A DNA stretch of 64,000 bases from a virus (IMGVR_UViG_3300042458_002038:9721-73720); one strand, 5' to 3'; shown: positions 21,088 to 48,590, counted from the first letter of the stretch. The notes: generated from the sequence alone by a model not told the origin. A program made the numbers and translations.

Positions 21088-21379
21088 CGTTGTTTCCAAT
21101 TTTAAATTCGCTTTGTGATAATAGATGATTTAGTAAGTCTCCAATATGATTCTTAAAGTCAGTGTCTTTGTCTAGAGATTCCTTAAGCAGCCCTTCTGGA
21201 GTGCTTTCAATCTTATAGACAAATGAAACCTTCAAGACATCATTTTCTTTGTCCTCAGTAAGGCGGGTGCGTCCATATGTATAGATCACACCCGCCCAAC
21301 GTCCAGACAATAATTTTATCGAGTATTGATCGCTATGTAAATCATTTTCGACAAAAATATAGTCTTTTTTCTCAGTCAT
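21071..21379 (-). CDS. hypothetical protein at the gp40 position
   Basis: Lies between uvsX and gp41; GVIYTYG...F...IGDLL. Confidence 0.55.
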   Translation of the reverse strand: MTEKKDYIFVENDLHSDQYSIKLLSGRWAGVIYTYGRTRLTEDKENDVLKVSFVYKIESTPEGLLKESLDKDTDFKNHIGDLLNHLLSQSEFKIGNNDAKES

Positions 21380-21950
21380 CTGTTTGTTCTTCAGGCGATT
21401 CTTCAAAGGTGATTGCACTCTCAGGAACACGATCAAGATTAACTTCAACGTCATTCATCATGTCGCGCAGGCCGATGGTATACTTGTTTTTGAGATATTC
21501 CGCAAAGTCAGTATTCTTAAATACAGTCTCCCAGAATTCTTTAGTCATGGTTTGAGCAGCACGCAGGTTGCCAGTCAACTCAACATCCTTTGCAATGTCC
21601 CATGCTTGGTACCAACCATTCTTTGGCTTGCGAACATAGCCACCAAGAATAGCAATATCCAATAGGCCGCTCCATTTTTGAACGCCACCTTCCCAGCTTA
21701 CGCTGATTGGAATTTTGCTTTTTTCTTTAACAAAGCGACTCTTTTCTACATTGATTACAAAGTGATAACCTTGAATTTCAGTACCATCTTTATCTTGTTG
21801 GCGACCAATAATCCAAACATTGTCCGCACTATACATGATGCCTGTGTTATGCGTCACAACACCATTCTTAAGAATATAGTGTTCAGCATCTTTAACGCTA
21901 AGGTCATATACTTTTTGCCGCCCTATTGATTTAATTTCTTTAATTTTCAT
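21372..21950 (-). CDS. uvsX: split intein C-fragment (35 aa) fused to UvsX C-terminal extein
   Basis: MKIKEIKSIG..VYDLSV..HY...NGVVTHN followed by TGIMYSAD...EKSRFVKEKS. Confidence 0.92.
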   Translation of the reverse strand: MKIKEIKSIGRQKVYDLSVKDAEHYILKNGVVTHNTGIMYSADNVWIIGRQQDKDGTEIQGYHFVINVEKSRFVKEKSKIPISVSWEGGVQKWSGLLDIAILGGYVRKPKNGWYQAWDIAKDVELTGNLRAAQTMTKEFWETVFKNTDFAEYLKNKYTIGLRDMMNDVEVNLDRVPESAITFEESPEEQTDD

Positions 21951-21958
21951 TATGTTAT

Positions 21959-21987
21959 ATTATAATATATTTTCTTCTGTTTGTAAA
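21959..21987 (-). promoter_or_regulatory. promoter for the uvsX C-half, embedded in the endonuclease 3' end
   Basis: TTTACA-N17-TATAAT, 8 nt before the ATG. Confidence 0.7.
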
Positions 21988-22838
21988 GGTCTTTTTTTAC
22001 ATTTATCGCCATGCCATCTTTTAAAATTTGATGTGTCTATATCTCTATTGCAATGCTTGCATGTTTGCATTTGAAGACCTTGAGTAATTACTTTATAACG
22101 ATATGGGTTAATCCATTCATCGGAATCTAGCTGTATTGCTTCATGTTTACTGACACGGATATTTTCACCAGTGATAACATTTTTTAATGTTACAAGATCA
22201 GATCTACCTATTTTAGCTTTCCATTCTGGAGTGCGGTTTATTTTAGCTACATTTTCTCTAAACCATTCAATATCTTCAGGCTTTCTTTTATTGCCTTTAT
22301 TTTTATCTCCAATAATTTTTCTAGTTTCTTCAGTATGGGTTTTTCCATAAAAACCGTTATCTTTACCAGAACGAATGATTTTTTGTTTGGTTTCTTCTGA
22401 TAATTTATTGCCAAACGTCACACCAACATATTCACCATTTAATACTGATGAGTCATCTCTGGAAAGTCTAACAATCTTTCCAGTTTCTTTGTTTTTATAT
22501 GTAGCATAATTTGGATTATGAAATGTATTTTCCATTGCTATAGATTTATTAAAATATTCCGGTGATGACACTGCAGATACTTTTATTTGTTCTTCCGCTT
22601 CACGCTGAAGAACTTTTTCATAATCTTCAGACGAATATAAAATTTCTATTTCACATATATCAGATTGCACCATCTCTTTATAGTTTTCCCATGTTGAAGA
22701 TCCATAATAAGGTTTATTACGGCCGTCATATATTATGCCATTCTTAAAAGAGCAATTTGACTTTGATCCAATATAAAGGTATGGTAAAATACCAGCAACT
22801 TTGCGTTTACTAAATGTTATTTTATATACTAAGTTCAT
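21960..22838 (-). CDS. free-standing GIY-YIG homing endonuclease with NUMOD3 repeats
   Basis: LVYKI...YIGSK...YYGSS; GFYGKTHTEETRKII; C-terminal CKHC...RWHGDKC; AT-rich. Confidence 0.85.
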   Translation of the reverse strand: MNLVYKITFSKRKVAGILPYLYIGSKSNCSFKNGIIYDGRNKPYYGSSTWENYKEMVQSDICEIEILYSSEDYEKVLQREAEEQIKVSAVSSPEYFNKSIAMENTFHNPNYATYKNKETGKIVRLSRDDSSVLNGEYVGVTFGNKLSEETKQKIIRSGKDNGFYGKTHTEETRKIIGDKNKGNKRKPEDIEWFRENVAKINRTPEWKAKIGRSDLVTLKNVITGENIRVSKHEAIQLDSDEWINPYRYKVITQGLQMQTCKHCNRDIDTSNFKRWHGDKCKKRPLQTEENIL

Positions 22839-22875
22839 CGGTTGTATGGGTTTATTTATACAACCGATGAACTTA
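22830..22875 (-). promoter_or_regulatory. 18-bp perfect hairpin occluding the endonuclease ATG, containing late promoter TATAAATA
   Basis: TAAGTTCATCGGTTGTAT-N10-ATACAACCGATGAACTTA. Confidence 0.85.
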
Positions 22876-22879
22876 AGAA

Positions 22880-23794
22880 TCAGATCAATACTTTACAATC
22901 TTGTCCAACCGTTAGGTCTTTTGCTTCTACCCAAAGGTCATCAATCATGAATTTGTGTTTATCACTGCAAACAATGGTGTGGCCATCCTCAAATGTAACT
23001 TCATAACATTCCGGTTCGCCTTCATCGAGCGTGTCTGGATTCCAAACAGCAGTAACTTCTTTAGGGCCATCTAATGTTTGAACATTATCACCAGCAATAA
23101 AGTCTTCAACCGGTTTAGTTGTTCCATCAGGCAGAGTAATAAGAGTTCCCGCAGCAACACAACCTCCACTAACAATAGCTTTTGGGAACAATCCAATTTC
23201 TTGATAGGTATGGTTGATTGCAAGCAAGCAAATGTTTTTCATTGTAAGGTATGGCGTAACCATACGGAACAATCCTTTAAGCGCTTTAGCACGAGTCATG
23301 TCGGCCACGCTCTTTTCATTCATTGCATCTTCCAATTCTTTTTTGGACGCAAGGTTACCAACACTATCAATAACAATAATTACTTTATCCTTGCGCTCCA
23401 TCTGCTCAAGTTGATTCACAATATCAAACTTGAGTTCTTCAATATTTTTAATGGGAATATGCAATACTCGGTTGGTATCAATACCAAAGCTTTCAAAGTA
23501 TTGCTGAGGACTACCAAATTCACTATCATAAAACATAAGACAAGCATCTTTATGTTTCTTAAGATATGCACCGGCCATAAGCAATGCAAAGCTAGTCTTA
23601 AAGTGCTTTGATGGACCAGCAAGAACGGTAAGGCCGCTGGTCAATCCACCGTCAATACTGCCACTTAATGCGACATTGACCATTGGTACACTTGTGGAGG
23701 TGATGTCTTTTTCAGCATAAAAATCGCTGTCAGCCAAGACGTCGGCTTCTTTAATTCGGCAATTCTTTTTTAGTTTTTCTAGTACAGATGACAT
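22880..23794 (-). CDS. uvsX: UvsX N-terminal extein (211 aa) fused to split intein N-fragment (93 aa)
   Basis: GPSKHFKT Walker A, YDSEFG, IDSVGNL; IVSGG then CVAAGTLI...CSDKHKF...WVEAKDL. Confidence 0.92.
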   Translation of the reverse strand: MSSVLEKLKKNCRIKEADVLADSDFYAEKDITSTSVPMVNVALSGSIDGGLTSGLTVLAGPSKHFKTSFALLMAGAYLKKHKDACLMFYDSEFGSPQQYFESFGIDTNRVLHIPIKNIEELKFDIVNQLEQMERKDKVIIVIDSVGNLASKKELEDAMNEKSVADMTRAKALKGLFRMVTPYLTMKNICLLAINHTYQEIGLFPKAIVSGGCVAAGTLITLPDGTTKPVEDFIAGDNVQTLDGPKEVTAVWNPDTLDEGEPECYEVTFEDGHTIVCSDKHKFMIDDLWVEAKDLTVGQDCKVLI

Positions 23795-23816
23795 ATATTA
23801 TTTCGTTGAGATATTA

Positions 23817-25088
23817 TTATAACAGGTTTTTCTTGGAATGTAAACTAAAAAATTCATCAAGTTCATGAGAATTATTTAGCAGCACACGTGTAGGATATTC
23901 AACCGTCTTATTCTTATTGCTTTGTTTGGTATAGTTACTTTCACTCCAAGTAACATCGCCATCAAGATACTTTACTACATTAAGCATCATATCACGAGCT
24001 GTACTTACAGGTACATTTTGGCAGATGTGATTAATCTTGGTTTTAAGCGGGTGCAATGATGCAAGATTAAAGTCTTCAGGCATCTTCATAACACGGAGAC
24101 AGTCACGTACAGTTGGAAAGCTTTGAGTAAATGGATTAATCATCCAGAATGGCAATGCTCCAATCAGACTAGGAATAATACCTTTGACCATAGTAATGCC
24201 ATGCGCCCAGTAACCCATACCTTTTGCACGTTTAGCGGCCATATCCCGAGCACGTCCTGCAGTTTTAGTATAACCATTCGCATCCATCCATTCCGATACA
24301 ACTGTAAGATTATCACCTAAGCCGCCGTCGGCCCAGACAATAAGATTCTGTGTATCATCCAGGGTGTCATATAGTTCTTTAATATCTTTAGTACCAGTCT
24401 TGTGCATGGCGTATGCAGCCCAACCATTGGTATTGGGATCGTCTTCATTGCAAGAGATATTCATTGGATCACCATCAGCATATGCCATATTAAAGATGTT
24501 TTCAATGGGTTCTCCAGGAACATTAAACCAACTAAATAACGGAGCAGATGTACTCTTAGTAAAGAAGTAGAATGTGCGGCCGCGCTTTTGAGACAGGCCG
24601 TGAAGGCGGCTTTCAGTATAATACAAGTTTAAGCTATACCCATACTTTTCGCCGATAGCAAACAAACGGTCTGCGACTTTTTTACCCATGTTGCTGTATA
24701 AACGTGGAGCATTCTCGCCCCAAAATACTTTAGGACCTACTTTATCAAGTACATATTCAGCAGTGGTATACAACCATTCATTAACTGCACTATCTGCACT
24801 GCTTGCAGTGCTAAGGCTGCTCAAACCAGCACAAGGGCAGGTGGAATTTACAACATCAACCGATTCTGGTACATAATCAGGCTGTTTGTCAAGGTGAATA
24901 TAGTCACCAGTCCATCCTTTTGTGTTGCGGATGTATTGAATGTAGTGATCATCATTGCTTGCAAAGGGACTATATGATAATACGTATTCTGGAAGTTGTC
25001 CATCTAGTGCTTCCATGACTCCAAGTGATTCACCGCCAATAAGCGGTACGATTGATGCGTATGTGTATTTCTTTTGTGCGTTCTCCAT
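23817..25088 (-). CDS. DNA (cytosine-5)-methyltransferase-like protein
   Basis: PLIGG (degenerate motif I), PCAGLS (IV), ENAP (VI), QKRGRTF (VIII), QNVP (X-like). Confidence 0.75.
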   Translation of the reverse strand: MENAQKKYTYASIVPLIGGESLGVMEALDGQLPEYVLSYSPFASNDDHYIQYIRNTKGWTGDYIHLDKQPDYVPESVDVVNSTCPCAGLSSLSTASSADSAVNEWLYTTAEYVLDKVGPKVFWGENAPRLYSNMGKKVADRLFAIGEKYGYSLNLYYTESRLHGLSQKRGRTFYFFTKSTSAPLFSWFNVPGEPIENIFNMAYADGDPMNISCNEDDPNTNGWAAYAMHKTGTKDIKELYDTLDDTQNLIVWADGGLGDNLTVVSEWMDANGYTKTAGRARDMAAKRAKGMGYWAHGITMVKGIIPSLIGALPFWMINPFTQSFPTVRDCLRVMKMPEDFNLASLHPLKTKINHICQNVPVSTARDMMLNVVKYLDGDVTWSESNYTKQSNKNKTVEYPTRVLLNNSHELDEFFSLHSKKNLL

Positions 25089-25096
25089 AAATTGAT

Positions 25097-26380
25097 TTAT
25101 AGGACTTTGCCGGGACCCGTAATCTTATTCAATGCAGCTAGCGTAACATCATTCAAATGCTCACCAGAATAGTATGATGGCTTTAACATAGTATCAAGAG
25201 TATCGCGCAACTTAGTATATGCGTCTGGATTACTTTCAAGATATGCAATCTTATCAAACAGGTCTTTACTGTCCTTTACACGCAAGAACTGTGGAGCATT
25301 TAAATGGTTTTGTTCATCATAAGTTGGATGCAGGAATGGTATGATTCCATAATGAGCCATCTCCCAGAACTTCATGGTGACCCATCCTTTTTTGATAGGA
25401 ATGCAATAAGTATATTTTACGCGGGGCAGCATGCTTTGCAATTCATGGAACGGTAAGCTGCCTTTAAAACGAGAGTCTGTTCCAATAGTACGCTCATCCC
25501 ATTTGCCATAGATTGCTACATCTTGTACATGGTTAAGAATGGTTTCTTTCAACAGGTTGTATCGTGATGGTCGCCCCTCATTGAGAACAATCATAAAGTT
25601 GATGTCTTTTATACCAGCCGGCTCTGGTATGTCTTCACCAAAGAATGTATCCAACGACGAAGTTTCCGTTTCGGCGCTTTGCTTTTCTTTATCTTGTCCA
25701 ATAAGAAAGATGGTTTCCATTGCACTATAGGTACTGGGAATGGTGTGCACTACCGTTTCATTGTCTGTATAGTTTTTACGAACTGTTACACGCGTATCTT
25801 CATCATATTGTGACAAGACAATGGTTGGCATATGAATCCAATCGCGTGCATTAGGAGGCCAGAAGCGTGGATCATTTACAATGAGAATGTATGGGATGTG
25901 GCGATTATCATTCATCCAATCCGTCATGGGTGCAACATATTTGCATAACATTTCAAGAGGACTTGCAACCTCACTAGGGTTACGCATTTTGGTAACCTTA
26001 AATGGAATGTTGGTAGTACCGGTTGGACCAGTAAATACAACACCAGCATCAAACTTTACATGATTGAGTGCAACATATTCTTTAAGGTATTCTATATTGT
26101 GTAATTTACTGTCCATTGGATTGTTCTTTTTCCAATCCACAAACTGCTTACCCCAAATGTCAACCACATTACCATTCGCATTGATGCGTTGCTTTTCGCT
26201 GCTGCTTAGACGTGAAAAGTCATTGCAACCCAACAGGTAAAATGTAATGCTAGGATTACGCGCAAATAGGTTTTCATAATACTTGGGCGCTTCGCAGTCA
26301 CCGCCAATATTCCCCCATGAATCGCGATTAAACAATATGCTCTTGCCAATCTTTCCTACATATACATTCATATTATCCAA
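25097..26380 (-). CDS. GT-B DNA glycosyltransferase (T4 BGT-like)
   Basis: IVNDPR and VTMKFWEMAHYG resemble T4 BGT FTDIR and LRVWETMAS; located in the hmC cluster. Confidence 0.7.
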   Translation of the reverse strand: MDNMNVYVGKIGKSILFNRDSWGNIGGDCEAPKYYENLFARNPSITFYLLGCNDFSRLSSSEKQRINANGNVVDIWGKQFVDWKKNNPMDSKLHNIEYLKEYVALNHVKFDAGVVFTGPTGTTNIPFKVTKMRNPSEVASPLEMLCKYVAPMTDWMNDNRHIPYILIVNDPRFWPPNARDWIHMPTIVLSQYDEDTRVTVRKNYTDNETVVHTIPSTYSAMETIFLIGQDKEKQSAETETSSLDTFFGEDIPEPAGIKDINFMIVLNEGRPSRYNLLKETILNHVQDVAIYGKWDERTIGTDSRFKGSLPFHELQSMLPRVKYTYCIPIKKGWVTMKFWEMAHYGIIPFLHPTYDEQNHLNAPQFLRVKDSKDLFDKIAYLESNPDAYTKLRDTLDTMLKPSYYSGEHLNDVTLAALNKITGPGKVL

Positions 26381-27392
26381 TCTTAACGCTGTCTGTATTC
26401 AAGTCAACCATGTAGGTTAGAGGATCAATGCCGCCGCGCTCAATTTCTTTTTCAAGGTAGGCAATTGTATCATCAAGTGCAGTTGAGATACTTTTCTTTG
26501 GGCACCAGCCAAGCGAGAGCGCCTTGCGAATATCCGCAAATATTTCAAATGCTTCACCGTTGATTTCCGGCATAAAGGTATATTCTACTGCATCTGGCAC
26601 TTCATATCCACGCGCTTTAAGTACACCTGCAACAGCATCACCAATTTCAAATAGGCTACAACTTTGTCCACGCCCAAGATTGTATGTTTGGCCAATAGTG
26701 CGATCATCGGTTAAGCATTGAACGTGAAAAGCATTCACGTCATCAACATGAATAAAGTCCCTACGACGTTGGCCATCGCCGAAGATGATTGGGTTGTTAC
26801 CTCCCATCATGCGAATAGCAAAGCCGGCAAACAGTGGAGGCACAGTGCGCTTGTAGTCTTGAATAGGCCCTGCAATATTAAAGTAACGCAATGCAGTATA
26901 GCGCAATCCTTTGGTGCGTGCATAACTTTCAGCAAGCAATGCAACAGCTGCTTTAGTGCTTGCATACACTGTAGTAGGATCGCTTTGGCCTTCAAAATAA
27001 CCATCTTGTAGCAGCTCACAATTTTCATATACTGCACTCGTCTCAGAGAAAACAACGCGTGGGCAACCGGCTGCAAGCAGTGCATCAAATACATTTACAC
27101 TACCAACAATGTTGTTGTCAACCGCACTTGATGTGTCACGATGGCAATCATAAATGCTAACCAAGCCTGCAAAGTGAAAAGTAATGTCAGGTTTGATATT
27201 GCCAATGTGTAAATGCATTGCTTCACGGTCACGAATATCGCATTTGAAAAAACGGACACGATCATGCACTTCAGGGATATATGAGCCGTGCGCAAGATTG
27301 TCAATTACAATCACATCATGCCCTAGTTCTAACAAATCAGGAATAAGATTTGTTCCGACGAAGCCGCAGCCTCCAGTAATAAGTATCTTCAT
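26373..27392 (-). CDS. NAD-dependent nucleotide-sugar epimerase/dehydratase
   Basis: ITGGCGFVG, YASTK, LRYFN, RDFIHVDD. Confidence 0.9.
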   Translation of the reverse strand: MKILITGGCGFVGTNLIPDLLELGHDVIVIDNLAHGSYIPEVHDRVRFFKCDIRDREAMHLHIGNIKPDITFHFAGLVSIYDCHRDTSSAVDNNIVGSVNVFDALLAAGCPRVVFSETSAVYENCELLQDGYFEGQSDPTTVYASTKAAVALLAESYARTKGLRYTALRYFNIAGPIQDYKRTVPPLFAGFAIRMMGGNNPIIFGDGQRRRDFIHVDDVNAFHVQCLTDDRTIGQTYNLGRGQSCSLFEIGDAVAGVLKARGYEVPDAVEYTFMPEINGEAFEIFADIRKALSLGWCPKKSISTALDDTIAYLEKEIERGGIDPLTYMVDLNTDSVKIG

Positions 27393-27408
27393 AGAGTTAT
27401 ATATGTGG

Positions 27409-27864
27409 TTAATTTTTCTTTGCAATGACGCGCGATCTCAATTCACTTGTAGAGAAACTGTGTCTTCTTTTGTTGTAATGGATTGGGCAAAGGTCTTTTC
27501 CGGTGTGATTGGTACCTTGGTATTCCTCGCCAACAATGCGCACATCAGGATTGATTGTAAGAATCATATCTTCCAGATCCTTTTCGGTTTCAAAGGGAAT
27601 AATTTCGTCCACATATTTGCATGCTGATACTTGTAGGTATCGCTCAAATACACTTTGAACTGGTGCGTTCTTTGTATCAGCACGATCCTTTGTGGGATCA
27701 ACCAATAATCCTACAATTAGATAGTCACACAATTGTTTTGCTTCCATAAGCATAACGGTATGACCTGCATGAAAGAGATCAAATGTTGATGCCGTAAAGC
27801 CTATACGAATTTCTTCAATGGGTTTGCCAATAAGTTTAGCCAGTGATTGTTTGTCGAGCAGCAT
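27409..27864 (-). CDS. TagD/HldE-C-like cytidylyltransferase
   Basis: STFDLFHAGH, CDYLIVGL, RRHSFSTSELR. Confidence 0.88.
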   Translation of the reverse strand: MLLDKQSLAKLIGKPIEEIRIGFTASTFDLFHAGHTVMLMEAKQLCDYLIVGLLVDPTKDRADTKNAPVQSVFERYLQVSACKYVDEIIPFETEKDLEDMILTINPDVRIVGEEYQGTNHTGKDLCPIHYNKRRHSFSTSELRSRVIAKKN

Positions 27865-28894
27865 TGATTTTATTTTTTAAGTGTTGTAGTAAAGATGGTT
27901 TGTCTTTTGCATATGGATACATTCTGCAAAGGTGACCAATCTCATGTGCTTTGAGAACCTCAAACTCAATGTTTGAATAATATTCAATATGATCCAATTG
28001 ACCATCTAGTGGATCATTTAGCGCAATTGATGTATATAGTTTAGCAATGTCTATAACCCATGAGCTGTAAAGAGTAGGGTCATTGATTGGGTCAATGAAA
28101 TATGCCGAAGTGGAATCGTTAGGGCCACTCATAATATTGCTAACGCTACAATCACCATGAGAGAATGTGGCTGGTGTTTGACGCATAGCTTCGCTCAGCA
28201 TAAGGTATATGAAGCTATAGTCTTCTAAAGATAATACATCTTTGACGCGATCTCGGCAACGTGCAATATATGAATCGGCGCTAACAGGTTCAGATTGCAG
28301 AGGCGGATGAGAAGCGAAGGTATGAACGGTTTCCAGCACGTCGGTTATGTCACCACTGTATGTATGCAAATATTGCATACGAATAGTATCACCAATAACA
28401 CTATGCACCCCTGGGACATTATAACCATACCATCGCGCGGCCTCAAACCATCGCACAACACTCTGTGTATTTTTTGATGTCTTGTAGACGCTGTCAGTTA
28501 CTTTATCATAATACACAGAGTCACCACTCCAACCACCAACCAAACGAGTGCGCTCAAAACTTTTAACAAATTGTTCTGGTGTAATACCTTTGTCATCAAT
28601 ATAGTATGCTGCCAGCTTCTTTTGGAAGCTAAGCGAGCTATACTTTACATCATGCTGCGCAAGCCAGCTCTCAATTTGTGCTCTGTACTTGAGATCGGCC
28701 GCTTCACAATCACCATTACATGAGAGTTGACCTCGTGCGGTAACAATATGAATGCTCCAGCCATCATCACATAAAGCATTGAGTTTGTTGACAAGCGCAA
28801 CATTTGGCATTGCATTTACCCAATCACGATTGTGAGTAATAGCAATGGTATCATCAAAGTCAACAACAAGAGTGGTTGTATAGTCTGAAATCAT
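27836..28894 (-). CDS. HAD phosphatase fused to APH/choline-kinase-like domain
   Basis: VDFDDTI, TARG, YIDDK; C-terminal HGDCSVSN, FIDP. Confidence 0.8.
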   Translation of the reverse strand: MISDYTTTLVVDFDDTIAITHNRDWVNAMPNVALVNKLNALCDDGWSIHIVTARGQLSCNGDCEAADLKYRAQIESWLAQHDVKYSSLSFQKKLAAYYIDDKGITPEQFVKSFERTRLVGGWSGDSVYYDKVTDSVYKTSKNTQSVVRWFEAARWYGYNVPGVHSVIGDTIRMQYLHTYSGDITDVLETVHTFASHPPLQSEPVSADSYIARCRDRVKDVLSLEDYSFIYLMLSEAMRQTPATFSHGDCSVSNIMSGPNDSTSAYFIDPINDPTLYSSWVIDIAKLYTSIALNDPLDGQLDHIEYYSNIEFEVLKAHEIGHLCRMYPYAKDKPSLLQHLKNKINAARQTITG

Positions 28895-28909
28895 ATGATG
28901 TATATATGC

Positions 28910-29251
28910 TTAGATGCGGCGGTTAAGAAAATCGCGATCAGCTTCTTGACCATCAACTTTGCCGCGCATATATGCTACAAGGAATGAACTGTAGTTGATT
29001 AGATCCTTACCACTATCTTCAATACTCTCAAAGTTGGGTTGATACTCAGGATCATTTTCCATAGCTTCAATCACACTATACATTCGCAATACCTTAGCTT
29101 GAATAATATCAAGAATGCTAGCTACACCGCGTGGGTAATAGTTTGCTTGACGAATGCGACTGTTTGGGTTTTGATAGTCACGACTCTTGCGTTCTTGCAA
29201 TTCGGCGCATTCTTTCAATACCAGAATACTTTCTTTAACTGGTGGAGTCAC
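28910..29251 (-). CDS. nucleotide-modification-associated protein (DUF1599/NMAD1-like)
   Basis: KSRDY...KVLR...ESIEDSGKDLINYSSF; probable GTG start. Confidence 0.7.
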   Translation of the reverse strand: MTPPVKESILVLKECAELQERKSRDYQNPNSRIRQANYYPRGVASILDIIQAKVLRMYSVIEAMENDPEYQPNFESIEDSGKDLINYSSFLVAYMRGKVDGQEADRDFLNRRI

Positions 29252-29267
29252 AGCAGTTGTGTTTGGA

Positions 29268-29393
29268 TTAACCTTGGCCACGTGACAGTTTCTTGTAGTT
29301 TTTACTTTGTTTAAGATGAGAAGTTTTGCTTTTGGCATGAATTCCCTTGCGACGAATTTTCTTTGGCTTAACCTTAGGGTTATTGTTTTTCAT
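29268..29393 (-). CDS. small basic protein (41 aa)
   Basis: MKNNNPKVKPKKIRRKGIHAKSKTSHLKQSKNYKKLSRGQG*, 6 nt after a TATAAT. Confidence 0.6.
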   Translation of the reverse strand: MKNNNPKVKPKKIRRKGIHAKSKTSHLKQSKNYKKLSRGQG

Positions 29394-29411
29394 AAATTTA
29401 TTATATACTGT

Positions 29412-29582
29412 TTATATGGATTTGTAAAGGACTTTTTTGCATTTATTAAAATGATATCTTGTCATGTTTGGACGCCGCCCGATTTTAGCACAATAGGGAC
29501 AATGAACAATATTCCAAGTTTTCTTTTTGCCTAAATGAATATCTGATAATTTTTTTCGCAATTTATTTGCAGCTTTATTCAT
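29412..29582 (-). pseudogene. remnant C-terminal DNA-binding part of a homing endonuclease
   Basis: RKKLSDIHLGK..CPYC....NMTRYHFNKC, similar to the end of ORF 21960-22838. Confidence 0.55.
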
Positions 29583-30321
29583 ACAATTTTTTATAATCTT
29601 CTTTAGATATAACAAATTCTTTTCCCTCCGTTTTGATATAATGATCTAGTAAGTAAAATTGTCGACTATACACATGCAGCGATCCTACTTGCCATGTGAT
29701 GCTGCCAGCACTAATTACATTGCCAGTGCGGCATGCAAGATCTTCAACCAAGCAGCCTTGAATATACTTTTGCCATGCATAGTCATTTCTATATCCGGCC
29801 CAAACATCATTACTGCGCATCTGAACAATCATATGCAGCTGCGAGTCTCGAAGTAGAAACTGAACAACATTGGTGCAAATGAAGTCGCTCATTCCACCAG
29901 CACACCAGTCAGTATGCATAGAAGGTCGAGTGTAAATCATTACAGCACGGCGGCTTTCAGGGTTAACGCATAATTCATTGCGTACATTTCCATACTGTGA
30001 GCCATTCTCTTTGCTTAACACAAGGTAACCATAATTGCTGTTGATGAAGCCTGCAGGAGTAGCTACAGCTGTCCAGATGGCCGGTGTCTTGCCTGGGATA
30101 TCATTTACATTAAGGCTCTGTGAAAGATACCAATCCAATTCGTGTTGAATATACTCAGCATTCTCAGATCCAAAGATTAGTGCTTCATCAGCAATAAAAC
30201 TTGCGCCAATCAGCTCTACTGTTTTTACGCCGCTCTTATCGGTTGTGAATTTTTCGGTTAGGTATTGTTCGGCGAGCAATTCGCGAACGTCATTTACATT
30301 CGTTTGAATAATGTTGTGCAT
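29575..30321 (-). CDS. 42: dCMP hydroxymethylase (T4 gp42-like thymidylate synthase homologue)
   Basis: INSNYG, DFICT, MRSNDVWAGYRNDYAWQ (Asp at the dCMP-specificity position), SLHVY. Confidence 0.88.
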   Translation of the reverse strand: MHNIIQTNVNDVRELLAEQYLTEKFTTDKSGVKTVELIGASFIADEALIFGSENAEYIQHELDWYLSQSLNVNDIPGKTPAIWTAVATPAGFINSNYGYLVLSKENGSQYGNVRNELCVNPESRRAVMIYTRPSMHTDWCAGGMSDFICTNVVQFLLRDSQLHMIVQMRSNDVWAGYRNDYAWQKYIQGCLVEDLACRTGNVISAGSITWQVGSLHVYSRQFYLLDHYIKTEGKEFVISKEDYKKLYE

Positions 30322-30671: not shown

Positions 30672-30709
30672 AATGTTATTATAACAAGTTAGATGTGGTT
30701 TGTAAAGGA

Positions 30710-41088: not shown

Positions 41089-42273
41089 TTAGTCCTTATA
41101 CGGATCATACACATCGGCACCTGCCATAGCAACGCCTAATGGCTTCAGCTGATGTAGGATTTGCACGGTATCACCTTGAGCAGCCAACACATCGGTCAAA
41201 CGCTTGTAGGCATGTGGGCTTTCATCACATCCTCCACCACGCAGCTCAACATTTGCATCGGATAGCCATTGGTCCATCATGTGTTGTGAAACTTTACCTT
41301 CACTAACACGAACTTTTTGACCGCCTTTCCATTTGCATTTGCCAGCAGCTTCAGTACGGCTCATGACACGACCAGCACCATGAACGGTTGAATAGAGTGC
41401 AGCTGCCGACAAGTCGCTTTGCGCACCTTGCAAGATAACACTGTTTTCTCCCATGGTACCACCAACAAATCCACGTTGCCCTGGCCAAGCTGGAGTTGCA
41501 CCTTTACGAACAACCCACAGGTCAACACCTTGATGCTGTTCGCGCCAAGCATAGTTGTGGTGATTGTGAACTTCATCAATGATGTCGGCAGACAGGATTC
41601 GTGCAACTTCAGCGCACACCCAATCACGACCAGCATATGCATAGTCACCTGCCAATTGCATTGCAGCGATATATTCACGACCAAGATCGGTATGCACATC
41701 AAGCAACACTGGATCCACAAGGATTCCATCAGTCCCACCGCCAGCTTTGATGTAATGCGAAGCAATTTTGTGGCCAAGACCGCGGCTGCCAAAGTGAACG
41801 CCAATCCAGATACGCTCCGCTTCATCTGCAAAGATGTCAACATAATGGTTGCCGCTGCCTACAGTACCCAATTGACCGCGAGCCATATCTTTAAGAGGGC
41901 TCAGCATTTCAATGTCAGACCATTGATCAGCATCAAACAATTCATGGTCAACTTTGGTTTTGTTTACACGACCAATTCCAAACGAGACATTGGCTACAAC
42001 TTCATCCATGATGCGTGAAATATCACCTTTCACGTCGGAAAGAGTAGCGTTGGTAAGCACTGCTTTGTTGCCACAGCCAATGTCAAAACCTACACCGCTT
42101 GGCGAGATGTGATCACGATAAGCAATCACACCGCCCACAGGAACGGCATAACCTAGATGATGATCGGCCATCAAAGCGGCAGCATGCGCACCTTTGCGCA
42201 AGCAGTTGTCCATTTGATCCACTGCGTTTTGCAATGGGTCTCCAAATACTGAGATGTTGTTTAAAACTTTCAT
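41089..42273 (-). CDS. rtcB: RNA 2',3'-cyclic/3'-phosphate ligase RtcB
   Basis: DHHLG, DIGCG, GSGNHY, HFGSRG, HNHHN, RKGAT, HGAGR, DESPHAYK. Confidence 0.93.
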   Translation of the reverse strand: MKVLNNISVFGDPLQNAVDQMDNCLRKGAHAAALMADHHLGYAVPVGGVIAYRDHISPSGVGFDIGCGNKAVLTNATLSDVKGDISRIMDEVVANVSFGIGRVNKTKVDHELFDADQWSDIEMLSPLKDMARGQLGTVGSGNHYVDIFADEAERIWIGVHFGSRGLGHKIASHYIKAGGGTDGILVDPVLLDVHTDLGREYIAAMQLAGDYAYAGRDWVCAEVARILSADIIDEVHNHHNYAWREQHQGVDLWVVRKGATPAWPGQRGFVGGTMGENSVILQGAQSDLSAAALYSTVHGAGRVMSRTEAAGKCKWKGGQKVRVSEGKVSQHMMDQWLSDANVELRGGGCDESPHAYKRLTDVLAAQGDTVQILHQLKPLGVAMAGADVYDPYKD

Positions 42274-43747: not shown

Positions 43748-44689
43748 TTATAAGCTTCGTACTGCAAAATCAATTGCTCTCGCACTTTCATTTTCCATTG
43801 GGCGGTTCTTATACCAGCCGCCAGTATCATTGTCTATATCTTTACACAGGCGCGCAACTTCAGCTGATGTAATAGGATAACCTCTTTTCATTGCGTTTGC
43901 GGCAATACTCATCATAATCTTATACATCATATGATACCAGCCGCCAGCTTGGATGGTACGATACTCTGCAACCATTCGCTTGTTGACAAATGGGCAATCG
44001 GCATATGAAGTCCACTTGTATGATGTGTTGGTTAACTTTTCTTTGCGGTATTGCTCAATCTTACGACGCATTTCTTCAGGCAGTTTATCAGACAATGATA
44101 GGCGCTGAAGGTTACCAGTCCATGGATGCTTTGCCATAATCTCATACGGATCAATCATTGGCGCTTCACGGTTGCTAAAGATAAACTTTTTGGAGTTTGG
44201 ATAAAGTGCTGGCACATAATACATTCGGCTTAAGTCTTTGGTTTGAGGATCGCCCAATCCATTATACTCTTTATTTAAAGCATACCAAAGGTGACGTATG
44301 CGATCCGCCGGCACTTCACATGTAAGAGGCAATACCACTCTAAACTTTGGATGCTCGTCGGTTGAGCTGGCAGAGCTGTAACATACATATCTCACATCTC
44401 TAAATACACTTATTGCATCCATCCAATGGCCTTCATATGTGTCAACATCAAGTGCCGCCCAACCAGCCCACGCTGTTACATTAGCATTTGCTCGAGTAGT
44501 GCCAGCCGTAAATATCGCTGGACTAATAAGTGCACTGCCATCTTTACGCTCATCCTTCTTCGGCTTGTACCCAGGTTGATCGCTCAACTTGTATAGCAAT
44601 CTTTCAAATGCGTCCCATGTATTAAATGACAATTGACGGTGTGTCTTGTTGTCATAGATACTTTTAAAGATGGTCAGACTATACTTCAT
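43748..44689 (-). CDS. archaeo-eukaryotic primase (PrimPol)-like protein
   Basis: AALDVD, YSSAS, KFRVVLPL, DPQTKDLSRMYYVP. Confidence 0.65.
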   Translation of the reverse strand: MKYSLTIFKSIYDNKTHRQLSFNTWDAFERLLYKLSDQPGYKPKKDERKDGSALISPAIFTAGTTRANANVTAWAGWAALDVDTYEGHWMDAISVFRDVRYVCYSSASSTDEHPKFRVVLPLTCEVPADRIRHLWYALNKEYNGLGDPQTKDLSRMYYVPALYPNSKKFIFSNREAPMIDPYEIMAKHPWTGNLQRLSLSDKLPEEMRRKIEQYRKEKLTNTSYKWTSYADCPFVNKRMVAEYRTIQAGGWYHMMYKIMMSIAANAMKRGYPITSAEVARLCKDIDNDTGGWYKNRPMENESARAIDFAVRSL

Positions 44690-45198
44690 GCGTGATCAGC
44701 AAATGCTTTTTGGATAAGTCCATGATTGCCTGTATGATCTGGAGCGCACCAGTTGTCCGGTTTAATCAAATCAGGTAATGAAAGTGGGTTTGGTCTGCTC
44801 TCTTTAATTCCAACGCGCTTAGTCATGTTTGCTTGCAGCACTTCAAACCAGGCTTTTTGAAAATCAACTTGAAGCAGGTCTAGTGTACCAGCCGCTACAA
44901 CAATAATATCTATCAGGCTGTCAACAATTTCTTCACTGTTGCGCTCAATGATTGCAGCCTTGCCTTCATTAACTTCTTCTTGCAAAAAGTCATAACGGAA
45001 TTTGATAAAGCTGGTTAGATTATCAGCTGATAAGTTTTCAACTGCATCATTGACTCCATAATACTGATGCATCATATGCATATCGGTACTAACGTCTTCT
45101 TCAACACGTTTGCCACAGGCCCAGAGTTCAAGAATCTGTTCCCAACGGTGTGCTGCTTGTCTTTGCATATGTGCTTCTGGTGTATTTGTGGTATTCAT
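44686..45198 (-). CDS. MazG-like all-alpha NTP pyrophosphohydrolase (probable dCTPase/dUTPase)
   Basis: LQEEVNE, EIVDSLIDII, ANMTK. Confidence 0.75.
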   Translation of the reverse strand: MNTTNTPEAHMQRQAAHRWEQILELWACGKRVEEDVSTDMHMMHQYYGVNDAVENLSADNLTSFIKFRYDFLQEEVNEGKAAIIERNSEEIVDSLIDIIVVAAGTLDLLQVDFQKAWFEVLQANMTKRVGIKESRPNPLSLPDLIKPDNWCAPDHTGNHGLIQKAFADHA

Positions 45199-45211: not shown

Positions 45212-46294
45212 TTAACAGAAAAAGTCTTCTAGACTTGCACGCGGTTCTGCGCTCCAGCCAATTGCATCAAGAATAAGTTCAAGTGGTTCAATGAAAGTCT
45301 TGTTGAACTGATGATCATAATTGACATACTTGTTCATATCAAATTCAACTGGCAGTGTATCCACAAATCCAATAACATTTTCGGCTGTTGGGTTGGGCAT
45401 CTTGAGAGGAATGTATTTGATACGGTCACCGCTTTGGATTGGTTGATATGTATCGGATAATCCTTTCTGCTTAAGCATATGATTATACATTAGAGCAGCA
45501 CGCACATGCATTGGTGTACCTTTCTTATAGATGGTTTGTTTATCACGCCACTTTACAATATCAGTAATACCTCGTGGAAAAGCAACCTGTTCAATTGGGA
45601 TGGTTGCAAAATGCGCACGAAACATTGCAATTGCAGCCTGCGTCTTAGCTTCATCCTCATTGATAATAATCTTAAAGATTTCCTTGAATGCGCCGCGGCA
45701 TACTTTAGGAGTACTGCTTTTGATTGCTTCGATACCCATCATTTTGATTTTTGGTTCGGTATACTGCACTCCTTCATTGTTGTGAATATTAAGAATGTAT
45801 CGCTTCTTAGCAGTCCAGATTCCACGGTCAGCAATAGCCTCCCGCTTCATAACCATTGCAGGTTTATAAACATTGGTAAGATCGGCAAGGCTATCAAATG
45901 CTTTCTTAAGCATCGGCTCAACGGCCTTGCTGCCAAATTCATCAAGGAATGCAACTGGATTGTTGGGCTTAAACTTTTCAATCACATCTTTTACGTGAAT
46001 ATACAAACTGTCCGTGTCAGCTGCAATAACTCGATCCACAACGCCGTCATCCTTAAGGAATTTGCTAAGCCAAACATTAGCATGCTCTTCAGCCCAGCGA
46101 ATAACCAACTGACCAGTAAGAGTAATACCTTCAGCAACTGCAATATCAAAGTAACGGAAATAGTTGTTGCCGATAGCACCGTAAAGTGAATTGAGCAAAA
46201 TCTTTAGACACATCTGTTCTGTCTCAAGACGTGAAATTTCGGTTTCAAGAACCGCAAGCTGTGATTTAAGTTGTGTATCAGTTAAGTGCGTCAT
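45212..46294 (-). CDS. 43: family B DNA polymerase, C-terminal subunit (gp43B)
   Basis: KILLNSLYG, ITLTGQ, DTDS, KKRY, C-terminal SLEDFF. Confidence 0.93.
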   Translation of the reverse strand: MTHLTDTQLKSQLAVLETEISRLETEQMCLKILLNSLYGAIGNNYFRYFDIAVAEGITLTGQLVIRWAEEHANVWLSKFLKDDGVVDRVIAADTDSLYIHVKDVIEKFKPNNPVAFLDEFGSKAVEPMLKKAFDSLADLTNVYKPAMVMKREAIADRGIWTAKKRYILNIHNNEGVQYTEPKIKMMGIEAIKSSTPKVCRGAFKEIFKIIINEDEAKTQAAIAMFRAHFATIPIEQVAFPRGITDIVKWRDKQTIYKKGTPMHVRAALMYNHMLKQKGLSDTYQPIQSGDRIKYIPLKMPNPTAENVIGFVDTLPVEFDMNKYVNYDHQFNKTFIEPLELILDAIGWSAEPRASLEDFFC

Positions 46295-47027
46295 ATAATT
46301 TATTAAAACAATTCATTTTAGTTTGGTGAATTTCTTTATCGGAAAATCTTATTACAGTATAGCCTTCAGATACTGCAAATGAATCAAATGCATTGTCTTT
46401 GGTCTTTTGTTGTTCATTTTCATGCCAGTATTCTCCATCTATTTCTACTAGAAGCCTACGGTTAATAATAACAAAATCAAACCTATGTGTAAATGGTTTA
46501 ATTTGGAATTGGCGACTATATTCAATTTCATTTTTATCGCACCATGCGGCAAAGAGTCGTTCTGGTTTAGTAAAACGGTATTTTCCTTCAGTGACACGGT
46601 GTACTCCAATTTCCCCATTAAAGCATTTTTCTTGTTGAGTTTTTCTCTTTTCGGGTGTCCATAATCTATTGGTATAATCACTCATTCTTTTTGGTGTTAA
46701 GCCATATCTCTTAACAAGACCGCATATGGTGGCTTTAACTGAACCAATCTCATTTGCTATTTCTTGATAAGTCATATTTTTTTCATACAACATTATCTTA
46801 AGAGTTTCTTCATCAAGTAATGGTTTATGTGAATCTGCCATTCTTTGCCTGACTACTTTACTTTTTGAGTGAGAAAGTAAATCAGGAAATTCACTTTTTA
46901 TTTTTTTATAAAATGCGTGATAATTCAATGAATGTTTTTCACATAAGAAACCTAATGAATTTCCTGATTGAATTTCCGATACTACCGTATCGTAATGCTG
47001 GTCTAACTGATATTGATATTTTGGCAT
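46278..47027 (-). CDS. Vsr/DUF559 (EDxHD-type) homing endonuclease with HTH N-terminus
   Basis: PE...RFDF...VEIDGEYWH...KD...GYTVIRF; MTYQEIANEIG HTH; AT-rich. Confidence 0.85.
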   Translation of the reverse strand: MPKYQYQLDQHYDTVVSEIQSGNSLGFLCEKHSLNYHAFYKKIKSEFPDLLSHSKSKVVRQRMADSHKPLLDEETLKIMLYEKNMTYQEIANEIGSVKATICGLVKRYGLTPKRMSDYTNRLWTPEKRKTQQEKCFNGEIGVHRVTEGKYRFTKPERLFAAWCDKNEIEYSRQFQIKPFTHRFDFVIINRRLLVEIDGEYWHENEQQKTKDNAFDSFAVSEGYTVIRFSDKEIHQTKMNCFNKLYDALN

Positions 47028-47069
47028 AATTAAGTATAAGCGTGTTCATTAGTATTTATACTTTTATGC
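47024..47069 (-). promoter_or_regulatory. hairpin over the endonuclease ATG with late promoter
   Basis: GCATAA-AAGTATAA / TTATACTT-AA-TTATGC; TATAAATA at 47053-47060. Confidence 0.65.
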
Positions 47070-48590
47070 TTTTGCGCCTCTTCTTTTTAGTTCCTCTAAG
47101 ATGGTTTCCTTTTCCTTTTTCTTGCGAATCATTTCAGCTTTGATGCCTACACGACGATTGTATAGCTCCTCAATAATCTCTGGAAGGAATCCTTGCTTAT
47201 CACGACGGAAGCATGCGCCGTTTGCAGCAACCGCAAGATTCGGCTCAGGGCTGATGTGAGTCTTGTTGGTCAATACAACGTCAGGATTCATGCTTGGCAG
47301 ATGCATATGTCGCACGAGTGTTTCAGGACTCATGTTGTACTGAATAATGATGTTGGGGTAAAGACTGTTAAGGTCAAAACTCATAACCCAATCATACATG
47401 CCGGGAACCACTTCCTTGACAAATCCACCTGGGTAGCTAACCTTTTGACTTGGGCGACTTGGCGGCACTGCAATCTTTTTTAATGCAAGGCGACGGAAGA
47501 TGATGCTATCCCAAATGGCAACCGTACCTAGTGTATCGCTATAGTTGACACCACCAAAATATGCTAGCGTAAACACAAGGTTAATCAATCCCAGCTTGGC
47601 TTCAAAGCGTTCAATAAGTTCAACGTCAACAATGTTGTAGTCCACAAACTTTTGGAAGTCCCGCTCATACAGTTTGGCAAGCGTGCCTTCTTCGCCATAG
47701 TCCAACTTGTTTTGGCCAAGAACAACTTCAGCAATATGATCCAACTTGTAGCTTTCTTGTTTGCCATAAGTATTGAGTGTAAACTTTTGGAACAGATCCA
47801 TATAGTCAAGTTGCTGAATGCCAGCGATGTTATAGAGAGTATTCTCACGGCCTTTCACAGTAACCGTCTTTTGCTCAATCTTTCCCCATGGGCTCAGCTT
47901 GCTAGCTTCATCACTACCCAATACTCTACTGATACGATTCACAAGGTAAGGAACATCAAAGAGTGTGGTATTCCAACCGGTAACCACATCAGGCATATTA
48001 AGAGTATCACTCCACCAAGCGATAAAGTCCAGCAGCATTTCGGCTTCGGTTTCAAATTGACGATACTCCTTTTTAAGATGTGGAATGCTGCTGGCGCTAC
48101 TATCATAATCCTTTAGTCCCCACACAATGTATTGCTCAGCTCTGCTGCTCTTTAGTGCAATGGTCAATACGCTATGACGTGCCTCACTAGGCTCAGGGAA
48201 ACTTGTGGTTGTCACGCCTGGGATTACCCCATAAGCAGTCTCAATATCAATGTATGCAATGTCAATAAGGCGGCGATCATACTTAATTTCATTGGGAAAC
48301 TCTGCTTGAATGAAAGCAGGAATATGACGGTCATTTCCATAGATTTTAAAGTTGGGAACACCTTCATAGCTTTTTGCAAACTCACGGCACTCACTCATAC
48401 TATCAAATCTCATCGGCTCAAGTGGGAGACCTTCAAGGCTGCGCCACTTTGCAGCTTTATCCTTACTTTCCAGATACATTACTGGACGGAATTTGTAACT
48501 GTTGTAAACCTTTTTACCTTCGTCATCATAGCCGCGATAGCGCAGGCTGTTCATATGGCGGTCAATGCAAGTATAGAATCCGTTAATCAT
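47064..48590 (-). CDS. 43: family B DNA polymerase, N-terminal subunit (gp43A: exonuclease plus motif A)
   Basis: DIET, GWN..FD.PY, SYKLD, YNIVD, SFDLNSLYP. Confidence 0.93.
   Translation of the reverse strand: MINGFYTCIDRHMNSLRYRGYDDEGKKVYNSYKFRPVMYLESKDKAAKWRSLEGLPLEPMRFDSMSECREFAKSYEGVPNFKIYGNDRHIPAFIQAEFPNEIKYDRRLIDIAYIDIETAYGVIPGVTTTSFPEPSEARHSVLTIALKSSRAEQYIVWGLKDYDSSASSIPHLKKEYRQFETEAEMLLDFIAWWSDTLNMPDVVTGWNTTLFDVPYLVNRISRVLGSDEASKLSPWGKIEQKTVTVKGRENTLYNIAGIQQLDYMDLFQKFTLNTYGKQESYKLDHIAEVVLGQNKLDYGEEGTLAKLYERDFQKFVDYNIVDVELIERFEAKLGLINLVFTLAYFGGVNYSDTLGTVAIWDSIIFRRLALKKIAVPPSRPSQKVSYPGGFVKEVVPGMYDWVMSFDLNSLYPNIIIQYNMSPETLVRHMHLPSMNPDVVLTNKTHISPEPNLAVAANGACFRRDKQGFLPEIIEELYNRRVGIKAEMIRKKKEKETILEELKRRGAKA

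Follow-up and report, generated by a model that had tools for sequence, protein, structure and literature searches.

We analyzed a candidate DNA glycosylation cluster of seven genes in a 64,000-nt stretch (hereafter the window; bases 9721-73720) of the 73.7-kb IMG/VR viral contig IMGVR_UViG_3300042458_002038, which derives from an uncultured marine T4-like phage and has a CheckV completeness of about 41%. The genes lie contiguously on the minus strand and fill positions 23817-30321, with overlaps or gaps of no more than 22 nt, apart from one 236-nt gap after the gene for a thymidylate synthase (TS) homolog. They are surrounded by T4-type replication genes (encoding a gp41-like helicase, a split uvsX, a split gp43, and a DNA primase-like protein) and lie between uvsX and gene 42, at the site of beta-gt in T4 and of the arabinosylation genes in RB69. 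A megablast search with the cluster against isolate phages returned no match. An earlier model-generated annotation (hereafter the sequence-only reading) had named the seven genes as a gp42-like dCMP hydroxymethylase, a DUF1599-like protein, a HAD phosphatase-kinase fusion, an HxGH nucleotidyltransferase (NT), a short-chain dehydrogenase/reductase (SDR) epimerase, a BGT-like glycosyltransferase (GT), and a C5-methyltransferase (MTase)-like protein. Open reading frame (ORF) calls combined with Pfam, PHROG, and NCBIfam scans recovered all seven genes at the positions and on the strand it had given (Table 1), and its labels agree with the family matches and motifs described below, with a reservation about the DUF1599-like protein.

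Table 1. Features in and around the cluster, in positions of the window.
Feature	Coordinates	Strand	Remarks
gp42-type dCMP hydroxymethylase (predicted 5-hydroxymethyl-dCMP synthase), 248 aa	29575-30321	minus	PF00303 2.9e-14; phrog_160 2.6e-53
sigma-70-like promoter match (TTTACA-17-TATAAT)	29400-29428	minus	11/12 positions; gap between gp42 gene and 142-aa gene
142-aa helical protein, weakly DUF1599-like (Nmad1)	28910-29338	minus	conserved core approximately the last 105 aa
Bifunctional HAD phosphatase (residues ~1-115) and APH/choline-kinase-like sugar kinase (~120-352), 352 aa	27836-28894	minus	
Small HxGH NT, 151 aa	27409-27864	minus	PF01467 6.3e-15; overlaps fusion gene by 29 nt
Extended SDR, NDP-sugar epimerase-like, 350 aa from TTG	26373-27425	minus	PF01370 8.7e-49; likely ATG start 27392
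GT-B DNA GT, T4 beta-glucosyltransferase-like, 427 aa	25097-26380	minus	likely ATG start 26371
C5-cytosine MTase-like protein	23817-25088	minus	PF00145 4.8e-11
MazG-like nucleotide pyrophosphohydrolase	44686-45198	minus	outside cluster; phrog_671 7.4e-21, phrog_12019 match
sigma-70-like site	30678-30706		11/12 positions; upstream of small ORF preceding gp42 gene
sigma-70-like site	23816-23844		11/12 positions; end of MTase-like gene
uvsX, broken up	21372-23794		
uvsX N-terminal part	22880-23794		ends in Hint/intein domain
NUMOD3 homing endonuclease	21960-22838		after uvsX N-terminal part
Intein C-terminal segment and UvsX C-domain	21372-21950		
gp43-like DNA polymerase, two pieces	45212-46294 and 47064-48590		
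HNH-endonuclease-like ORF	46278-47027		between the gp43 pieces
RtcB-like tRNA-splicing ligase	41089-42273		phrog_1075 2.5e-74

The TS homolog bears on which base is modified. It is 56% identical to T4 gp42 and matches the T4 dCMP hydroxymethylase structures 1b49 and 1b5e in the PDB (phmmer, 3.3e-82). At the positions corresponding to ThyA L143, C146, D169, and N177, it reads D-C-D-D, the same as T4, and RB69 gp48 aligns as E-C-N-D. The catalytic Cys (C146) lies in DFICTN and aligns to T4 C148, and the SDFIC and RND motifs supply Asp at both L143 and N177. A 2026 study of RB69- and DLP3-type TS homologs, which make 5-hydroxy-dCMP, provides a rule in ThyA numbering: Asp at N177 indicates a dCMP substrate, an acidic residue at L143 indicates a non-methyl product, and Asn in place of Asp169 marks a 5-hydroxy-dCMP synthase (PMC13326640). 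We considered and rejected a 5-hydroxycytosine synthase of the RB69 gp48 or DLP3 gp80 type, as the window protein keeps Asp169 (MRSNDV) where RB69 gp48 has Asn (MRSQNC). We therefore read these active-site residues as those of a genuine 5-hydroxymethyl-dCMP synthase.

No Tet_JBP domain, as needed for the route to 5-hydroxymethylcytosine (5hmC) through a C5-MTase and a 5mYOX/TET enzyme, was found on the 73.7-kb contig, which is about 41% complete; the contig instead carries the gp42-type enzyme. Because such an enzyme makes the modified nucleotide before replication, every C in the phage DNA should be modified.

The putative sugar-donor genes include the HAD/kinase fusion. Its HAD part matches TIGR01689 (3.4e-16) and the PDB entries 9iqw (5e-11) and 1xpj (1.5e-8). 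The C-terminal kinase part has a weak Pfam EcKL match. In an alignment of 18 fusion sequences, DxDDT, TARG, and DD are kept in the HAD part, and the glycine-rich loop GWSG, K138, HGDxxxxN, and IDP are invariant in the kinase part. Metagenomes contain more than 160 cluster representatives of this family. Among cellular genomes, only two metagenome-assembled genome contigs carry the full fusion, and the remaining matches are standalone HAD domains.

The adjacent NT scores best in NCBIfam against rfaE_dom_II (TIGR02199, 5.8e-19, at 68 bits versus a cut-off of 181.5), followed by TagD (1.5e-15), and is 32% identical to the adenylyltransferase domain (domain II) of E. coli HldE. In the PDB, it matches ethanolamine-phosphate cytidylyltransferase (ECT, 2e-21) and the glycerol-3-phosphate cytidylyltransferase TagD (4e-16). 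Its product is most likely a nucleoside diphosphate (NDP)-sugar, either ADP- or CDP-linked, as the scores do not separate the two.

Downstream, the SDR gene directly abuts the GT gene. The SDR scores 136 bits against GalE (TIGR01179), 119 against dTDP-glucose dehydratase, and 97 against HldD (TIGR02197, cut-off 274.6), all below cut-off; its best PDB match is the UDP-hexose 4-epimerase 4zrm (1.3e-40), and it is 27% identical to E. coli GalE and 24% to HldD. The GT has only a weak Pfam GT match and no detectable sequence similarity to T4 beta-gt. Its AlphaFold model (pLDDT, a per-residue confidence score, of 86.6) nevertheless finds T4 BGT as the top Foldseek match (1qkj, 3.4e-9), followed by BshA (3mbo, 8.6e-7) and MshA. 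The nearest isolate homolog is in Pseudoalteromonas phage XG4 (36%), and homologs lie beside pyrimidine hydroxymethylase genes in XG4 and in Enterococcus Denvervirus phages. This is the one GT in the 73.7-kb contig; a second, AGT-like GT was looked for there, and none was found.

To place the cluster in context, we confirmed 154 viral relatives and mapped 80 fetched viral loci (given L numbers below) for homologs of the window and reference proteins. Every locus that extends far enough (73/73) has an NT homolog no more than 1.3 kb downstream of the fusion, and NT identity stays at 52-96% even where the fusion, in the more distant loci, is down to 31-41%. This steadiness and adjacency argue for one conserved sugar-1-phosphate substrate. 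The TS-like genes near the fusion carry D-C-D-D in 39 cases out of 45, including all gp42-like ones, and Asn169 in none (0/45). The cassette of fusion and NT pairs with four GT families: that of the window (31 loci), AGT-like PF11440 (28), TAGT PF20691 with Tet_JBP (approximately 9-10), and another GT1 family (7). The same gene set recurs in dozens of viral loci, a co-occurrence far beyond chance. The SDR is accessory, present in 11 of the 80 loci and within two GT subclades; GT homologs without it still directly follow the NT gene (L011, L017-L021, L048, and L054). The sequence-only reading had seen no isomerase in the cluster, and this extends to the whole 73.7-kb contig and to 10 kb around the fusion in the 80 loci, where searches for SIS, SIS_2, E. 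coli GmhA, and RB69 gp55 isomerases found none, so that isomerases of the GmhA or KdsD type are absent from these regions.

A kit of this composition has an experimental precedent. Pyle, Lund, O'Toole, and Saleh reconstituted metagenomic phage clusters in E. coli and cataloged ThyS-linked GT-B clusters with APH, epimerase, and methyltransferase neighbors (bioRxiv 10.1101/2023.12.21.572611). In their contig 53 (subclass III), a HAD-like/APH-like bifunctional enzyme, a cytidylyltransferase, and the GT-B enzyme GT53 (429 aa; Foldseek matches 3mbo and 1bgt) were all needed in E. coli, and the products were a 449-u heptosyl-5hmC (257 + 192) and a 641-u di-heptosyl-5hmC (bioRxiv 10.1101/2023.12.21.572611). 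E. coli has its own ADP-heptose and still required the phage kit; the phage donor is therefore likely to be different in nucleotide, anomer, or epimer.

Based on this information, we propose the following pathway. The gp42-type enzyme would convert dCMP to 5-hydroxymethyl-dCMP, which would be built into DNA in place of C. The starting sugar would be a host sugar phosphate, most likely D-glycero-D-manno-heptose 7-phosphate from host GmhA. The APH-like kinase domain would phosphorylate C1 of this compound, the fused HAD domain would take off the distal (7-) phosphate, and the HxGH NT would make an ADP- or CDP-linked NDP-heptose, which the GalE-like SDR would epimerize or otherwise tailor. The BGT-like GT-B enzyme would then link the sugar to 5hmC in DNA through the hydroxymethyl group, yielding heptosyl-5hmC and possibly di-heptosyl-5hmC, and the resulting sugar may shield the DNA from restriction and CRISPR nucleases.

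We hold the general scheme (5hmC, a self-made NDP-sugar, and a DNA GT) with high confidence, and we are moderately confident that the sugar is heptose-derived and that the full pathway runs as proposed. The donor is probably not UDP-glucose, and the SDR probably alters the phage-made sugar. The sequence-only reading had likewise proposed cytosine hypermodification with a dedicated sugar donor, in keeping with the gene content, the 5hmC-type active-site signature, the BGT-like fold, and the conserved linkage of the cassette, all observed here, and with the reconstituted precedent. It had also compared the enzymes to the ADP-heptose route, the reaction logic of which does fit best; the enzymes, in contrast, are analogs and not orthologs of HldE, GmhB, and HldD, with an APH-like instead of a pfkB kinase, an AfhF-like HAD domain, and a GalE-like SDR. 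Its suggestion of an undescribed base modification does not stand, as the 2023 preprint by Pyle et al. had already produced 5-heptosyl- and di-heptosyl-methylcytosine with a matching kit of HAD/APH enzyme, cytidylyltransferase, and GT-B, so that the modification class is described (bioRxiv 10.1101/2023.12.21.572611).

Several points weigh against a heptose. The closest characterized relatives of the HAD domain are arabinose-1,5-bisphosphate phosphatases (AfhF/RB69 gp51), and the SDR, being more GalE- than HldD-like, could instead act on a host UDP-hexose. The likeness of the window to contig 53 rests on architecture, shared HMM families, and loci of the L039 type (gene order TET, fusion, NT, 429-aa GT), and identity between the window and this TET-linked clade is just 37% for the fusion, 62% for the NT, and 29% for the GT. 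The "heptose" of contig 53 is itself a mass assignment only (bioRxiv 10.1101/2023.12.21.572611). The window contig represents about 41% of the genome, and the remainder could encode another GT, an isomerase, or a TET enzyme. Finally, the phage is known here from its genes alone, from which we infer the sugar, the nucleotide, the order of reactions, and the SDR step.

The relationship of the HAD domain to the Afh enzymes raises the alternative of an arabinose-like NDP-pentose donor, made as by RB69 and HY126, in which the kinase would act on C1 of the host's arabinose 5-phosphate or another pentose 5-phosphate and the HAD domain would remove the 5-phosphate to give pentosyl-5hmC. AfhF-type phosphatases take the 5-phosphate off arabinose 1,5-bisphosphate (PMC13326640), the HAD part is 38% identical to RB69 gp51, and 9iqw and 1xpj are the structural matches reported for AfhF-type phosphatases. 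A weak alignment (E 0.009) also links the kinase catalytic loop to the AfhE-type kinase domain of RB69 gp52, and in XG4 the GT homolog has an AfhE-like NT-kinase fusion and a separate AfhF-like HAD as neighbors. However, the SIS isomerase of a pentose route is missing from the contig and from the surroundings of the fusion in the related loci, the fold of the window NT differs from that of AfhE, and it is hard to see what a GalE-like SDR would do with a furanose. Known arabinosylation acts on 5-hydroxycytosine, the TS signature of which is absent from the window, and the tested cluster with the exact fusion architecture gave a heptose. We consider a pentose donor unlikely.

We note that RB69 gp51 (L004 5709-6095) and phrog_1238 carry the public label "phosphoheptose isomerase", whereas sequence and published work identify a sugar-bisphosphate phosphatase.

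Also unlikely, and ranked just behind the pentose, is a "subclass II" arrangement in which the SDR and GT would work as an epimerase-GT pair and place an epimer of a host UDP-hexose, UDP-N-acetylhexosamine, or UDP-hexuronic acid on 5hmC, the cassette then making a second donor or serving an off-contig GT. The adjacency of the two genes and the best SDR matches, which are UDP-hexose and UDP-N-acetylhexosamine 4-epimerases, fit such a pair, and epimerase-dependent GTs do transfer hexose, N-acetylhexosamine, or hexuronic acid to 5hmC; subclass II GTs, however, are of the GT-A and not the GT-B fold (bioRxiv 10.1101/2023.12.21.572611). Moreover, 73.7 kb of sequence contain a single GT, and GT homologs lacking the SDR remain directly behind the NT gene.

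The cytidylyltransferases among the best PDB matches of the NT could point instead to a CDP-alcohol such as CDP-glycerol or CDP-ribitol, with the GT-B enzyme acting as a TagF-type phosphotransferase that puts polyol phosphate on 5hmC. TagF-type enzymes have a GT-B fold. This alternative is very improbable given that the masses from the homologous kit fit a phosphate-free heptose (449 u = 257 + 192), that the GT model matches the glycosyltransferases BGT, BshA, and MshA, and that the cluster encodes an NDP-sugar epimerase. Least probable of all is a target other than DNA, with the sugar enzymes decorating a virion protein or altering the host surface and gp42 as the sole DNA-modification gene. 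In its favor are the family name of the HAD domain ("capsule biosynthesis phosphatase") and the standalone HAD homologs in bacterial genomes. Against it, the full fusion is found almost exclusively on viral contigs and always accompanies gp42-type TS or TET genes and DNA-GT families (AGT, TAGT, BGT-like) among replication genes, and the homologous kit gave DNA products experimentally (bioRxiv 10.1101/2023.12.21.572611).

Returning to the heptosyl-5hmC pathway, the MTase-like protein is the cluster member that it leaves without an obvious substrate, because all cytosines should be 5hmC. The protein has CPC (motif IV), ENA (motif VI), and QKRGR (motif VIII), which along with PF00145 agree with the C5-MTase-like label of the sequence-only reading. 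Across 34 aligned family members, E125, N126, Q167, R169, and R171 are invariant, and Cys86 (PC) and QNVPV are kept in at least 90%. Motif I departs from the S-adenosylmethionine-binding pattern, reading VPLIGG and not FxGxG, with L16 and G18 invariant and Leu16 in place of the first Gly. A family member is found in 23/37 loci with full flanks, and the 47 loci with the MTase-like gene have a gp42-type TS within the fetched flanks in 33 cases and a TET gene in one. The protein may methylate residual C or have another activity. A more speculative combination, which we regard as doubtful, is that the SDR yields an NDP-heptose epimer or derivative never seen on DNA and that the MTase-like protein, which mostly occurs where a gp42-type TS should leave C5 already occupied, is not a methylase but a new kind of enzyme that attacks C6 covalently and has 5hmC or glycosyl-5hmC as its substrate.

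Support for the DUF1599-like label of the 142-aa protein is weak. The lead came from an ESM Atlas cluster with DUF1599 in 48% of members, and Pfam DUF1599 itself gives E 0.092, below threshold. The model (pLDDT 74) has a best Foldseek E of about 0.4, to the dCTP pyrophosphatases DCTPP1/MazG; a VIA-wide search gave unspecific helical matches, a PDB sequence search nothing meaningful, and a literature search on DUF1599 nothing useful. Homologs adjoin the gp42 gene in 14 loci. The protein matches phrog_1485 and the C-terminal part of phrog_18404, the N-terminal part of which is matched by the MazG-like protein of the window; since each protein matches one end, phrog_18404 appears to be a fusion of MazG with a domain of the 142-aa type. 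The MazG-like protein could be a dCTPase that excludes dCTP, the role of T4 gp56. The 142-aa protein was also compared with a 131-aa ORF of phage XG4, to which it is not homologous.

Regarding expression, the three sigma-70-like sites in Table 1 are consensus matches only, and a motif scan inside the cluster found no T4 late promoter TATAAATA and no minus-strand terminator. This pattern fits early co-transcription of the cluster. In the flanking region, uvsX is interrupted by an intein and a homing endonuclease gene, an HNH-endonuclease-like ORF separates the two pieces of the gp43-like polymerase gene, and an RtcB-like ligase gene is also present.

Individual related loci show variations on the gene set. 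In the T4-like locus L071 (4018-13759), the gp43-uvsX slot has an MTase-like gene and a TET-like dioxygenase gene instead of gp42, followed by fusion, NT, and GT; post- and pre-replicative routes thus share one genomic slot. Rather than the SDR type of the window, a GDP-mannose-4,6-dehydratase-type SDR lies near the cassette in L016, L017 (11487-12485; PF16363 2e-118), and L024, those of L016 and L024 being identified by BLAST to that of L017, where it directly follows the NT gene. These loci hint at a donor of the 6-deoxy-heptose type. Pseudoalteromonas phage vB_Psh_XG4 (L001, PP712099, 100-6580) has a D-C-D-D TS, an AfhE-like NTP-transferase/kinase fusion, two GTs, and the same MTase-like protein, and its 131-aa ORF has a TARG-type motif that, judged by eye, suggests an AfhF-like HAD phosphatase. 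This gene set would predict pentosyl-5hmC and not pentosyl-5-hydroxycytosine. The Firmicute phage AB434P2 of Agathobaculum (L005, 416-4500) has the same fusion, a 151-aa PF01467 NT, and a GT-like protein. Its TS, annotated as dUMP hydroxymethylase, has Asp where ThyA has D169 and N177, and genes resembling those for thymidylate kinase and dUTPase_2 are also present.

Sugar coating of cytosines determines whether a phage genome can be cut by restriction enzymes, type IV systems, and CRISPR nucleases. The heptose-type cassette, previously reconstituted for one metagenomic cluster, has a wide distribution and occurs with both 5hmC routes and at least four DNA GT families. What is distinct in the window is the pre-replicative gp42 chemistry, the extra GalE-like SDR, and the conserved C5-MTase-like partner. 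The SDR-bearing variant and the MTase-like partner are candidates for new sugar stereochemistry and new DNA-modifying activity, respectively.

Among known systems, T4 glucosyl-5hmC modification (gp42, alpha-gt, and beta-gt) shares with the window the gp42 active-site signature, the BGT-like fold, and the uvsX-gene 42 slot, but it draws on UDP-glucose from the host and has no genes for making a donor. The Afh arabinosylation pathway of RB69, DLP3, and HY126 (PMC13326640) likewise has kinase and phosphatase steps via a sugar bisphosphate, a homologous HAD phosphatase, an APH-like kinase, and a cluster between uvsX and gene 43. Unlike the window, it has a 5-hydroxycytosine acceptor (made by an Asn169 TS), an arabinose-5-phosphate isomerase, a kinase fused to a MurU-like NTP-transferase (AfhE), and no SDR; with its kinase fused to HAD, a PF01467 NT, and no SIS, the window has only the AfhF-like HAD domain in common with the Afh gene set. 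The bacterial ADP-L-glycero-D-manno-heptose pathway (GmhA, HldE, GmhB, and HldD) has the same order of C1 kinase, distal phosphatase, HxGH nucleotidyltransferase, and SDR epimerase. The window differs from it in the APH-like kinase (in place of pfkB), another HAD subfamily, an SDR nearer to GalE, the lack of GmhA, and scores below the equivalog level.

Contig 53 differs in that its 5hmC is made post-replication at GpC sites by a C5-methyltransferase and a TET-like dioxygenase, whereas the window has the extra GalE-like SDR, a C5-MTase-like protein without TET, and 29-62% identity to the TET-linked clade. In other respects, the two systems correspond: both combine a HAD/APH enzyme with an adjacent PF01467 enzyme and a GT-B enzyme (about 429 aa) that has T4 BGT and BshA for structural neighbors, the pathway predicted for the window likewise has a 5hmC acceptor in DNA and needs a host sugar phosphate with no isomerase of its own, and the annotation keys of contig 53 (TIGR01689 and TIGR02199) are the top NCBIfam matches of the window proteins.

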